From positions 67,879 through 131,878 of the forward strand of contig JAEXCU010000015.1 of assembly GCA_023402015.1 (NCBI GenBank): a DNA stretch of 64,000 bases, given 5' to 3'. The position numbers and the translations under genes are program-made. Source of the DNA: Pseudomonadota bacterium. Lineage in GTDB: Bacteria > Pseudomonadota > Alphaproteobacteria > Rs-D84. The notes under the pieces were generated by a model, which worked only from the letters and a program-made list of their open reading frames with translations, made no database searches and was not told where the DNA came from. Positions 137 to 33,878 of this stretch are shown piece after piece (position 1 is the stretch's first letter; every line of letters starts with the position of its first letter).

Positions 137-880
137 ATGTTGCAGATGCAAAAAATTTTGCACAAATTTTTCTATCATTTAAATGATTTCTTGTTTCCAC
201 CCGTCTGTCCGTTATGCGGTGCGCCTGTGTCTGTTCATGGCGAATTGTGCGTGGATTGTTGGACGGCGTTTAATTGGATTGGAAATCCAAAATGTTATCG
301 TTGTGGTTATCCGTTTCCCGCAGATTTGGATTTGGGGCCGCGTCCAATGTGTCCAATTTGCGCGGCGGGAAAATGCGAACTGGATTTCATTCGCAGTGCA
401 TGCGTTTATGACGATGCGTCGCGCGCGGCAATGTTGCCGTTCAAACACGGCGGACGTATAAAATATGGCGTGTTTATGTCGCGTGGCATGATTTGGGCAC
501 TGCGTGATTTAGATATTTCACCAGATATTGTGATGCCGGTTCCGTTATCTTATCGCAGGTTATGCAAACGCGGTTATAATCAGGCGACAATTCTGGCACG
601 TCCGATTGCCCGTGCGTTTGGTGTTCACGTGGATGTTAATTCTGTTCGCAGAAAACATCGCCCAGACATGGGACACAAAAATGCCCGCGACCGCGCAGAA
701 AATATTCATGGTGTGTTTAATGTAATTCACCCGGATAAAATTCGGGGTCGTAAAATTTTATTGGTTGATGATGTTATGACAACCGGTGCAACATTTTCTG
801 AATTACGCCGCGCGTTAATGAATGCCGGTGCATCAGCCGTTTACGGTGTTTCTTTTTGTCGTGTTGTTCGCGCAATATAA
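137..880 (+). CDS. comF: ComF-family phosphoribosyltransferase-like protein
   Basis: Four CxxC pairs lie near the N-terminus (CPLC, CVDC, CYRC, CPIC). The PRPP loop LLVDDVMTTGAT is present. The track ORF opens at TTG 122; the first ATG is at 137. Confidence 0.8.
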   Translation: MLQMQKILHKFFYHLNDFLFPPVCPLCGAPVSVHGELCVDCWTAFNWIGNPKCYRCGYPFPADLDLGPRPMCPICAAGKCELDFIRSACVYDDASRAAMLPFKHGGRIKYGVFMSRGMIWALRDLDISPDIVMPVPLSYRRLCKRGYNQATILARPIARAFGVHVDVNSVRRKHRPDMGHKNARDRAENIHGVFNVIHPDKIRGRKILLVDDVMTTGATFSELRRALMNAGASAVYGVSFCRVVRAI

Positions 881-4446: not shown

Positions 4447-5175
4447 ATGTCAGAAATATTGGTTGAAAAACGTACTTTACAGGCATATCAATGCGACCGT
4501 TATGGCAATATGCGTCCGCTGATTTTAATGAATGAATTACAGGGCATGGGCGACAAACACGCGGAAAAATTGGGCGTGGGATATGAATATTGCCAATCGC
4601 ACGGAATGGCGTGGGTTGTTACCCATTACCTGGTGGATATTATCGAAATGCCAACCGAACGCGAAGAATTGCAAATAATGACATGGCCGTCATGCCAGGA
4701 TAAATTGCGTGCCACGCGTGATTTTGAAATCCGTGGGGCGGACGACCGTTTGCTGGTACGGGCAACATCCCAGTGGGTTCTGATTGATATGGCGCGTCGT
4801 CGTCCATTGCGTTTGGATGAAAATTTGCCGCGGTGGTTAATAAACGAATGCCGCGCGTGGGACCGAACATTTGATAAATTCCCGGATTTTGCCGCGCAAA
4901 AAACACATACGTTTAAATGCCGGTTTGACGACATTGACGTGAACCAGCATATTAACAATGCCGTTTATGCCGTTTGGGCGACCGAAAGCGTCGGTTATGC
5001 ATTCCGTAATCAGCATCAGTTAAAACGCATAGAATTAAACTTTAAAAAAGAAATCAGTCCCGACACACCGGAAATTCAGATAGACGTTGCAATTGACGGC
5101 AATGTTTCGCATCACAAAATTCGCACCGGCGACACAGAACATGCGTCGGTCGTTTGTTTTTGGGAAAAAATGTAA
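4447..5175 (+). CDS. acyl-ACP thioesterase family protein
   Basis: A double hot-dog layout and N-terminal similarity to FatA/B-type bacterial acyl-ACP thioesterases (YQCDRYGNMRP..., HINNAVY). Confidence 0.65.
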   Translation: MSEILVEKRTLQAYQCDRYGNMRPLILMNELQGMGDKHAEKLGVGYEYCQSHGMAWVVTHYLVDIIEMPTEREELQIMTWPSCQDKLRATRDFEIRGADDRLLVRATSQWVLIDMARRRPLRLDENLPRWLINECRAWDRTFDKFPDFAAQKTHTFKCRFDDIDVNQHINNAVYAVWATESVGYAFRNQHQLKRIELNFKKEISPDTPEIQIDVAIDGNVSHHKIRTGDTEHASVVCFWEKM

Positions 5176-5326
5176 ATTGGGACCGTCCATATGGATGGGG
5201 GGCGGCGGCGATATATTTGAATAAGTATCACTATGGCATTAAACGTGGTGGCTGAACCCCGGCCACCACCGTTTTTAATGGTTTTCTTTTATTGAAAAAT
5301 TTCTTATATTATTATATAATGCCCGT

Positions 5327-5526
5327 GCAGCAACGGATTGTTGCTGTGGGGAATAAGAACCCCTAGAAGTCCGCCTTGAAACAAGGTGAAATAACTCCAA
5401 CTGTCGGTTGGAGGGCGGTGATATATAAAAATAAACCCGCTATAGACTTCTATAGTTCTTATCCTCCAACCACCTGAATTTTCTGGTGGTTATTTTTTTA
5501 AATGTTTAAACCGGGAGAGAGGATAA
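5327..5526 (+). promoter_or_regulatory. Structured 5' leader with intrinsic terminator (copy 1 of a two-member leader family)
   Basis: Promoter TTGAAA 5292-5297, 17-nt spacer, TATAAT 5315-5320. Hairpin 5395-5413. Terminator AACCACC/GGTGGTT 5468-5491 plus a T-run. About 110 nt are colinear with the leader at 33580-33701 on the minus strand. Confidence 0.6.
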
Positions 5527-5793
5527 ATGACAACAAATAAAAAAAATATTCCAGAAGAAATGCAAATCTTAGAAGGTGAACAAGAATTTTACATCAGCCT
5601 GGGCCAGCGTTTGCGCAAATTCCGCGAAATGAATGAAATATCATCTGCCCAAATGGCCGAAATCGCCGGCACAACCGCCGACCAATGGGAAAAATATGAA
5701 ACCGCAGAATTGGCATTCCCGCTGTATCATTTGGTGCCGGTTCTGGAACACTATGGTTTTCCGCCAGAATTAAAATTATGGCAATTTAATTAA
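5527..5793 (+). CDS. small XRE-family helix-turn-helix protein (88 aa)
   Basis: HTH segment LGQRLRKFREMNEISSAQMAEIAGTTADQWEKYE. An SD sequence lies directly upstream. Confidence 0.7.
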   Translation: MTTNKKNIPEEMQILEGEQEFYISLGQRLRKFREMNEISSAQMAEIAGTTADQWEKYETAELAFPLYHLVPVLEHYGFPPELKLWQFN

Positions 5794-33108: not shown

Positions 33109-33579
33109 TTAATTGCTGTAATAACAGTTGGACGTGTATGTAAAACTGCCCGACGAATCTGAACCGGTGGTACCGACGGCCAGATAACATTCTGTTATTG
33201 ATGTTGCGCCACTGGTCGCGGTCGTGCCATAAACGCCGCCTGACGATGGACATCGCGTGCATGTTTTATCAAGACGTGTGGGGACCCCGTAATAACCGAC
33301 CGCGCATTTGTACGATATTATGTTTGCGCATTCTGCATATGCAGTATTGTTTTCACATTTTGTGGATTTTTTCTTGGTATTAATTTCTATTACACCGCCA
33401 GACAGTGTGGTTTCGGTTGTGCCACTGCAATTACAAATACTGCTGTTGGTGCAACTGCTGTCATATGTCGGGGATGTACCACCCACCAATGCCGGACAAA
33501 CATTTCCGCAACAATTAAACGCCGCAAATGCATGGTTGCCAAAACCGCATATTGCGGTGGCGATTATAATTTTCTTCAT
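33109..33579 (-). CDS. Cys-rich secreted protein (156 aa)
   Basis: Signal peptide MKKIIIATAICGFGNHAFA and 16 Cys in the mature part. It contains the motif CAVGYYG...CTRCPSSGGVYG...GATSITECY. The SD is GGAGG. Confidence 0.7.
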   Translation of the reverse strand: MKKIIIATAICGFGNHAFAAFNCCGNVCPALVGGTSPTYDSSCTNSSICNCSGTTETTLSGGVIEINTKKKSTKCENNTAYAECANIISYKCAVGYYGVPTRLDKTCTRCPSSGGVYGTTATSGATSITECYLAVGTTGSDSSGSFTYTSNCYYSN

Positions 33580-33775
33580 TTCTAACCTCCGTTTTTTTCA
33601 TAAAGAAAACCACCAGAAATTCAGGTGGTTGGAGGTTAGCGACTATCTTGTAAATAGTGGTGGTATTTGGTATTTCCACACCCTCCAACCAGTGGTTGGA
33701 GATTAAAAAATGCACCACATAACGCCGCGGATGCCTGCGTACAAGAATGGGTCGCTAAACCCCGTTATCAGAATA
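33580..33775 (-). promoter_or_regulatory. Structured 5' leader with intrinsic terminator (copy 2 of the leader family)
   Basis: All elements read on the minus strand. Candidate promoter TTGCAC, 17 nt, TATGAT. Hairpin 33683-33701. Small hairpin 33642-33658. Terminator AACCACC/GGTGGTT at 33608-33630. Anti-SD 33631-38 pairs with SD 33583-90. Confidence 0.6.
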
Positions 33776-33878
33776 CCTGACAACATTTTTATCATAACAA
33801 TATAAAATTTGCGGTGCAAGCAAAAGGTTGCTATAATGCATGCGTGAATAAATGCTTAACATAAAAAGGGTTTATAAT

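Follow-up and report, generated by a model that had tools for sequence, protein, structure and literature searches.

The window considered here is a 64,000-nucleotide stretch of contig JAEXCU010000015.1 from a Pseudomonadota bacterium of the alphaproteobacterial lineage Rs-D84 (assembly GCA_023402015.1). It carries two copies of a structured leader RNA, each upstream of a monocistronic gene, and both copies belong to a large family in which a terminator and an anti-terminator helix compete for the same strand. Copy 1 lies on the plus strand behind a near-consensus promoter (-35 TTGAAA at 5292-5297, a 17-nucleotide spacer and -10 TATAAT at 5315-5320; 11 of 12 consensus positions), from which a transcription start at about 5327 and a leader RNA of about 175 nucleotides (5327-5499) are predicted. 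The gene that follows (5527-5793) begins with an ATG at 5527, 28 nucleotides past the T-run of the leader, has its own terminator at about 5800, and encodes an 88-amino-acid XRE-type helix-turn-helix (HTH) protein (Pfam HTH_31, E = 1.8e-07). Copy 2 lies on the minus strand, where its promoter (33791-33819; TTGCAC 33819-33814, a 17-nucleotide spacer and TATGAT 33796-33791) precedes a leader at 33602-33784 and a gene (33109-33579) for a 156-amino-acid Cys-rich protein. This protein has a signal-peptide-like N-terminus, and a Pfam search with it returned no match. The gene assignments of the original prediction, made from the letters alone, were likewise an HTH regulator and a Cys-rich protein.

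The elements of the leader occur in a fixed order: promoter, P1, P2 (whose loop is segment A), segment B, P3, an A-rich linker, P4, P5, P6 (whose loop is segment B'), segment A', and a tail that merges into the terminator. In copy 1, the 5'-terminal hairpin P1 (5327-5347) pairs 5328-5334 with 5340-5346 and is followed by P2 (5348-5363), a GGGG/CCCC hairpin enclosing segment A (ATAAGAAC, 5353-5360), by segment B (TAGAAGTC, 5364-5371), and by P3 (5372-5388), in which 5372-5378 pairs with 5382-5388. The P4 hairpin (5395-5413) reads CTCCAAC-TGTCG-GTTGGAG, with arms at 5395-5401 and 5407-5413; the first of these, CTCCAAC, is the proposed anti-anti-terminator strand, and the second lies within the anti-terminator 5' strand GGTTGGAGG (5406-5414). 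P5 (5415-5440) joins GCGG (5415-5418) to CCGC (5437-5440) around the AU-rich loop GATATATAAAAATAA, and P6 (5440-5455) is a short CTAT/ATAG stem around segment B' (GACTTCTA, 5445-5452), the partner of B. Segment A' (GTTCTTAT, 5455-5462), the partner of A, leads into the tail CCTCCAACC (5463-5471), an exact complement of GGTTGGAGG that overlaps the 5' arm of the intrinsic terminator (5468-5499; AACCACC 5468-5474, loop 5475-5484, GGTGGTT 5485-5491, T-run to 5499). All motifs named in the original prediction, including the promoter, P4, the CTATAG/CTATAG hairpin at 5440-5455, the 9-nucleotide complement, the terminator and the ATG, are present at the positions given above.

The corresponding parts of copy 2, all on the minus strand, are P1 (33784-33764), the GGGG of P2 (33763-33760) with segment A (33758-33751), segment B (33746-33740) with its partner B' (33652-33646), P4 (33701-33683) with the anti-terminator strand (33690-33682), P5 (33679-33660), segment A' (33643-33636), the tail (33635-33627), and the terminator (33630-33608 plus a T-run). 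As had been proposed, this second colinear leader upstream of the ATG at 33579 shares sequence with copy 1 beyond chance. The 16-mer CCTCCAACCACCTGAA occurs exactly twice in the window, against a chance expectation of 0.25 matches even with three mismatches, and none of 100 shuffles reaches the observed count; for the P4 hairpin pattern the chance expectation is 0.00. The homology was first thought to cover the last ~110 nucleotides. The copies are indeed colinear there, but this span was too short, since the whole ~175-nucleotide transcript is structurally conserved, including P1, P2, B and P3 upstream of 5395. Similarly, the small hairpin at 5440-5455 is a true short stem (P6), but that description was incomplete, as the P6 loop pairs with an upstream single strand (B:B'). 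Our covariance model, R1, scores copy 1 at 126.5 bits and copy 2 at 108.9 bits, and over the 64-kb window it returned no further convincing copy.

Related genomes contain many more copies. A first scan of a species-representative genome collection with the P4 and tail pattern yielded 94 genomic stretches (numbered below with the prefix L, as are later finds), in which R1 identified 112 copies, or 114 with those of the window (the type I set). A second scan, anchored on the P5 loop and the terminator and requiring a non-A residue after CTCC, gave 89 further stretches from the same clade with 103 copies by R1 (the type II set), so that the family numbers at least 217 copies and exhibits strong covariation. 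A few odd labels aside, all carriers are metagenome-assembled genomes (MAGs) from animal or human gut labelled Candidatus Enterousia, 'Rickettsiales' or Alphaproteobacteria. Published members of Enterousia (order Rs-D84) are uncultured gut bacteria with genomes of 0.75-1.0 Mb and a coding density of about 90% (PMC12306168). Some MAGs hold at least 13 copies, as counted by the restrictive pattern of the second scan alone. Typical copies also occur under non-alphaproteobacterial labels, namely L040, L078 and L079 (CAVGNU, Bacteroides fragilis) and L123 and L160 (CAZJGX, Muribaculaceae), and these carrier MAGs are probably mis-binned or mislabelled. Among the viral contigs of IMG/VR there is only one copy (L095 8452-8612), and the phage and plasmid collections searched contain no copy of the leader element. 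The L095 copy lies upstream of an open reading frame (ORF) for a 595-amino-acid membrane-protein-like product, on a 10-kb contig that may not be viral.

The most telling property of the family is that three strands change together: the P4 5' strand, the P4 3' strand, and the tail that overlaps the terminator 5' arm. P4 and the tail are invariant by construction in the pattern-selected set, and the informative copies are those that the model found without the pattern and those from the second scan. Over 112 distinct copies, the 9-base-pair anti-terminator helix is 99.1% paired and has four positions changed on both sides, and none of 500 shuffles is as good. The type I allele (at least 104 of 112 distinct rows) combines the P4 5' strand CUCCAAC with the 3' strand GGUUGGAGG and the tail CCUCCAACC. 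The type II allele (92 copies) combines CUCCUGA(C) (CUCCUGAC) with GGUCAGGAGG and either the tail CCUCCUGACC or a tail in ..UGGCC that forms a G.U wobble. A minor allele in L020 has the three strands UCCCGACC, GGUCGGGA and CUCCCGACC, and in another the P4 5' strand is absent and the 3' strand GGUUGGAAG is matched by the tail CUUCCAACC (L090) or CUUCCAGCC (L010). In a further allele, carried by L044, L049 and L064, GGUUGGAGU pairs with ACUCCAACC; its G-C to U-A change lies outside P4 and is therefore specific to the anti-terminator helix. Types I and II are found together on the same contigs (L018, L042 and L070), which favours RNA-RNA pairing over a lineage-specific change in the specificity of a protein. 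Because three strands must change at once, the P4 and tail segments would be expected to stay highly conserved while other helices drift, as they do.

The 3' end of the family consists of the tail AACCUCCAACCACC, a loop of about 10 nucleotides, GGUGGUU and a U-tract. Five or more T residues fall within the eight nucleotides past the stem in 176 of 183 copies, hairpin dG averages -9.6 kcal/mol, and compensated CCGCC/GGCGG changes occur, though rarely, in the distal stem. Anti-terminator pairing takes AACC, four of the seven nucleotides, from the terminator 5' arm. These leaders have the defining parts of an intrinsic-terminator attenuator, namely a stem and U-tract near the gene together with a mutually exclusive anti-terminator helix that is backed by covariation. 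The mutually exclusive arrangement first seen in copy 1 is thus borne out by the near-complete pairing, by the changes on both sides and by the three-strand allele of type II.

The remainder of the leader was likewise compared across copies. The -10 hexamer is nearly invariant (TATAAT in 59 and TAAAAT in 16 of 96 copies), and 6-7 nucleotides past it begins P1, a hairpin of at least 6 base pairs in 94 of the 96 copies that is built from 55 different stem sequences. P2 (helix 1) is 81% paired and all four of its pairs are changed on both sides, with GGGG/CCCC replaced by GCGAG/CUCGC in one subfamily. P3 is 93% and 90% paired in the type I and type II sets, respectively, with five of five pairs changed on both sides, and its expansion makes the type II copies longer than those of type I. 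P4 has the family form CUCCAAC-N5-GUUGGAG. The stem of P5 covaries around a conserved AU-rich loop (family consensus GAAUAUAUUGAAUAA), and the P6 stem is CTAT/ATAG, CAAT/ATTG or GCA/TGC, with B:B' overlapping the stem ends. For the structure as a whole, 90.8% of pairs are formed in the type I copies and 92.8% in those of type II, which were retrieved independently. In each set 28 pairs are changed on both sides and the covariation score is about 0.34 versus 0.13 in shuffles (0 of 500 as good), whereas register-shift controls drop to 33-52% (type I) and 29-53% (type II) paired.

Two long-range pairings span this architecture. A:A' is 86-96% paired in model-based alignments, with five or six of six pairs changed on both sides, and remains 85.6% paired, with both-side changes at six of six positions, when aligned by MAFFT without regard to structure; its longest Watson-Crick run averages 6.05 nucleotides within a copy versus 3.2 nucleotides across copies. 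B:B' is too variable in length to align, and each B was instead matched both to the P6 loop of the same copy and to those of the others, giving mean longest Watson-Crick runs of 7.4 and 3.7 nucleotides, respectively. Copy 2 and its orthologous leader in L024, the only syntenic relative of the window among the fetched loci (74.5% identity over 2.2 kb around copy 2), differ by compensatory changes in B:B' (TCTTGTA/TACAAGA versus CTTAGA/TCTAAG). The genome of the window itself is absent from the species-representative collection, in which an exact 41-mer gave no match. A de novo mutual-information scan places pairs of A:A', P3, P5, P6 and B:B' in its top ranks, with A:A' highest.

Because A and B' lie in the loops of the local stems P2 and P6, A:A' and B:B' would either form as pseudoknots between loop and strand or replace these stems. 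The minimum-free-energy fold from ViennaRNA draws the two pairings as one long interrupted helix, in which GGGG is predicted to pair with CUCC of the tail and the helix to close a P3/P4/P5 junction. Columns 17 and 232 of alignment A4 (roughly 5352 and 5439 in copy 1) also covary, linking the first P2-loop nucleotide after GGGG to a purine between P5 and P6 (U-A 41, C-G 31, G-U 18, U-G 4, A-G 12). The covariation may mark a tertiary pair, or it may simply follow the subfamilies.

The position of the leaders relative to genes is nearly uniform. Of the 113 evaluable type I copies, 99 are followed within 80 nucleotides by a start codon on the same strand that has a Shine-Dalgarno (SD) sequence, by an automatic criterion. 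The remainder comprise three with an ATG in the flank that missed the SD filter, seven followed by another copy that leads to a gene, one with a gene at +85, and three with none. In the type II set, 96 of 99 copies have a same-strand start within 80 nucleotides. The gap between U-tract and start codon is about 15-35 nucleotides, which cannot hold a promoter, and the gene should therefore be expressible only by read-through of the leader terminator. This is the main argument that the element acts in cis as an attenuator. Several loci also hold 5'-truncated 'mini' copies after a full copy (L022 6177-6333; L023 383-537; L010 just after 1745; L090 1854-1986), which retain only the anti-terminator strand, P5, P6, A', the tail and the terminator. 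Having no P4 5' strand, the mini copies would be expected to remain fixed in the anti-terminated fold. In L023, the A' of the mini copy is identical to that of the full copy upstream.

Downstream of type I leaders are XRE-type HTH proteins (15 Pfam HTH matches), surface proteins with Listeria-Bacteroides repeats or YadA anchors, one C5 and one N6/N4 DNA methyltransferase, and many unannotated proteins. About nine in ten type II copies precede proteins with a signal-peptide-like N-terminus, mostly Cys-rich (judged by eye). One leader subfamily precedes a family of 61-68-amino-acid proteins for which there is no Pfam match and only a weak PDB profile match, to the N-terminal region of regulators (E = 0.0095). 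These are probably degenerate XRE HTH proteins, and nothing marks the family as the effector. In promoters of this subfamily, such as that of L004 (about 560-612, minus strand), a 6-1-6 palindrome, CAAATA-A-TATTTG, is visible by eye between -35 and -10 and resembles an operator through which the downstream HTH-like protein would regulate its own gene. Taken together, the genes probably constitute a regulon of secreted and surface Cys-rich proteins, XRE regulators and DNA methyltransferases.

On these comparative grounds, we consider it rather probable that the element is a cis-acting transcription-attenuation leader, a riboswitch-like conditional terminator that is OFF by default and whose ON fold is favoured by an effector. 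Each unit would be transcribed from its own sigma-70 promoter, and the RNA would fold into P1 through P6, held together by A:A' from the P2 loop and B:B' from the P6 loop. In the proposed OFF state, P4 (CUCCAAC:GUUGGAG) would form first and sequester the anti-terminator strand, leaving AACCACC of the tail to pair with GGUGGUU, and transcription would stop about 30-40 nucleotides before the start codon. In the proposed ON state, the P4 3' strand (GGUUGGAGG in type I) would instead pair with the tail (CCUCCAACC) and so dismantle the 5' arm of the terminator. The resulting helix would close a P5/P6 junction that could dock on the 5' domain through A:A' and B:B', and RNA polymerase would read into the downstream gene. 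We infer that the two states alternate in vivo and that a putative effector tips the fold towards ON. Within this scheme a small molecule would be the first candidate for the effector, although short of an even chance, with a protein only slightly behind; a kinetic or physical cue or some other input seems less likely, and an RNA least likely of all.

Four observations weigh against a switch of this kind. First, nested-only ViennaRNA energies place the OFF fold 12.4 kcal/mol below the ON fold on average, a gap that is overstated in that ViennaRNA does not count the pseudoknots of the ON fold; given these energies, the ON state would need help from a strong effector or from pseudoknot contributions. 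Second, P4 is a plain hairpin with a variable loop and no obvious ligand pocket. Third, the covariation of the anti-terminator helix comes from few allele classes, perhaps five or six independent events. Fourth, two or three full units may follow one another in tandem, repeating every 245 nucleotides or so (L044 4212-4855; L049 3816-4457; L064 5037-6042; L079 565-966), and in these arrays the upstream units have their own promoter and terminator and an SD-like remnant, but no ORF.

A further step would be to regard the leaders as a new orphan riboswitch class or other direct RNA sensor, in which a pseudoknotted aptamer of ~180-220 nucleotides gates the anti-terminator and controls essentially the whole secreted and surface Cys-rich repertoire, along with XRE regulators and DNA methyltransferases, in the reduced-genome gut bacteria assigned to Rs-D84. 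At least two orthogonal switch-helix alleles would then coexist in one cell, and terminated leaders, ORF-less tandem units or 5'-truncated units could cross-talk in trans. The leaders do combine an elaborate covarying fold with unpaired segments that are conserved (the P5 loop and the linkers), and we regard this proposal as possible but somewhat doubtful.

Less likely still is that the terminated RNA of ~175 nucleotides is itself the active product, so that the units are trans-acting sibling small RNAs (sRNAs) or dual-function leaders whose single-stranded CCUCC tail serves as an anti-SD seed on target mRNAs, with P4 and the long-range helices modulating access. The conserved promoter and terminator of every unit fit such a role, as do the 5'-terminal hairpin and U-tail, which would favour a stable RNA, the A-rich linker, the CCUCC motif, the ORF-less units of the four tandem arrays and the 5'-truncated mini copies. 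The original prediction had noted an anti-SD complement in copy 1, and TTATCCTC (5459-5466) does complement GAGGATAA (5519-5526). Long complementarity of this sort to the ribosome-binding site (RBS) recurs in copy 2 (the two window copies having 8 and 9 nucleotides), L011 and L055 (range overall 8-11 nucleotides), but it is not a feature of the family. The longest run between A' plus CCUCC and the RBS region averages 4.84 nucleotides for a copy's own site versus 4.54 for those of other copies, and runs of at least 8 nucleotides are found in 4.5% of own and 1.8% of cross pairs, so that the match is no better than its cross-control. Moreover, in roughly 90% or more of cases the unit directly adjoins a start codon on its own strand, leaving no space for a second promoter, which is unexpected of free-standing sRNA genes, and behind every orphan unit comes a further unit that leads to a gene. 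The three-way covariation is predicted by a cis switch and unnecessary for a seed, and none of the alphaproteobacterial sRNA families in Rfam matches the element. A search of the window for a trans partner containing GGUUGGAG, CUCCAACC or the complement of the P5 loop found only copies 1 and 2 themselves.

Could the leader be structured and yet not switch? A promoter with a leaky terminator might set a fixed, low level of read-through or stabilise the mRNA 5' end, and the similarity between P4 and the tail might then reflect a structural or processing need. The strong preference for the OFF fold in nested thermodynamic models agrees with this, and with a modest terminator (the mean stability given above and a 10-nucleotide loop) partial read-through is plausible. 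This explanation leaves unaccounted for a 9-nucleotide tail complement that is kept by changes in three strands, including a position outside P4, as well as the elaborate covarying long-range architecture, and we judge it improbable.

That the units are mobile repeats of the repetitive extragenic palindrome or miniature inverted-repeat transposable element kind, which carry a promoter and terminator incidentally, is largely refuted and seems to us very improbable. The copies are numerous, as such repeats would be, some are in tandem or truncated, and tRNA genes are found a few hundred bases or less from several copies or arrays (L044 3967-4040; L001 595-668; L012 3175-3364; L139 871-944). However, some 90% or more of copies keep a fixed orientation and spacing relative to the start codon; the original prediction had named scattering without regard to gene context as an observation that would refute it. 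Within a single genome the copies are not near-identical but differ strongly, their helices being kept by compensation, the orthologous copy in L024 has been kept at its syntenic site, and the searches of viral, phage and plasmid sequences gave only the single match in viral contigs. An equally small chance attaches to a leader-peptide attenuator of the trp or his type, or a T-box-like tRNA sensor: although the 1:2 / 2:3 / 3:4 helix logic resembles classic attenuators, P4 contains an SD-like GGAGG, and copy 1 has a GTG-initiated 19-codon frame (5418-5477), this frame is not conserved (by eye, the aligned copies share no start codon or frame, copy 2 has a stop in it, and many copies read GGUAAA at the start-codon position), and RF00230 gave no match at either the gathering or a permissive Rfam threshold. 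We rejected the leader-peptide candidate on the lack of conservation of the frame from GTG 5418.

Near copy 1, two further features deserve mention. R1 gives a weak match (18.7 bits) at 5153-5290 on the plus strand, directly after the ORF at 4447-5175 and ahead of the copy 1 promoter. Within it are GCGGCGATATATTTGAATAAG, which resembles the P5 loop, and a strong terminator, GTGGTGGC-TGAACCCCG-GCCACCAC with a T-run (5245-5269); the matched stretch may be a decayed leader copy that now serves as the terminator of the upstream gene. On the opposite strand, an ORF resembling rpmH (ribosomal protein L34; 5830-5970, minus strand) adjoins the copy 1 gene, and in the related locus L010 a leader lies upstream of a recF-like gene. 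Given these neighbours, some leader copies may sit near the replication-origin region.

The family appears to be undescribed, although the kind of regulator, a terminator attenuator, is known. With Rfam 15 at the gathering threshold, the window and 18 loci with some 30 copies between them yielded tRNAs as the only matches, and in E-value mode the best values for leaders of both types were 0.14-0.19 (SgrS, Y RNA, Qrr and a microRNA), far below gathering scores. Literature searches with sequence strings and with 'Enterousia' found no description of the leader RNA. The first 200 of 408 supplementary files of Fremin and Bhatt (2021; PMC8040213) contain no matching string, and the family could be listed among the 3161 unnamed candidates of that study. 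The original prediction is partly supported: it was largely right about the switch logic and the lack of a known family, wrong or unsupported as to the anti-SD pairing, and incomplete on the extent of the element, its long-range pairings, the size of the family and its hosts.

The leader family is unusually abundant for such small genomes, and the retention of at least 13 copies of a ~200-nucleotide non-coding element in some small-genome MAGs implies strong selection. These leaders head what is apparently the main outward-facing gene set of their hosts, comprising Cys-rich secreted proteins, Listeria-Bacteroides-repeat and YadA-type surface proteins, regulators and DNA methylases. If they are sensors, identifying the signal would provide a first handle on the regulation of host or partner interaction in Enterousia-type bacteria, and would add a new, structurally complex class to the few regulatory RNAs that control non-metabolic regulons. 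The three-strand covariation displays, with unusual clarity and in natural sequences, a terminator/anti-terminator/anti-anti-terminator switch.

The leaders share with the expression platforms of riboswitches and T-boxes their location in a 5' leader, a terminator 5' arm that is common to an alternative helix, a third competing strand, and a large covarying upstream domain. They differ in that the anti-anti-terminator is a simple mid-fold hairpin, P4. In addition, the pairing of the P2 loop with A' and of B with the P6 loop matches no riboswitch class that we compared, and the downstream genes are non-metabolic. The closest analogy at the level of the regulon is with c-di-GMP-I (GEMM-I) and cGAMP riboswitches, which also occur in many copies per genome, sometimes in tandem, ahead of heterogeneous non-metabolic genes that include those for secreted or surface proteins and regulators. 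However, the leader fold is unrelated to theirs, with no Rfam match, and each tandem leader unit has its own promoter.

In cobalamin riboswitches, through a kissing loop, and in other pseudoknotted riboswitches, hairpin loops pair with distant segments and thereby couple the sensor to the expression platform. The leaders likewise pair loops with distant segments, but they have two long-range pairings of 6-10 base pairs that are hypervariable between paralogs and can also be read as one long nested helix. Finally, sibling sRNAs of Alphaproteobacteria (AbcR and the alpha-r14 'cuckoo' RNAs) are multi-copy and sometimes tandem, have their own promoters and Rho-independent terminators, and can pair with SD sequences through a C/U-rich motif. 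The leader family resembles them in copy number, tandem units, promoter and terminator, and CCUCC. In contrast to these sRNAs, the leaders do not present CCUCC in a hairpin loop, match no such family in Rfam, and are fixed directly upstream of start codons, and their three-strand covariation points to a switch that acts in cis.

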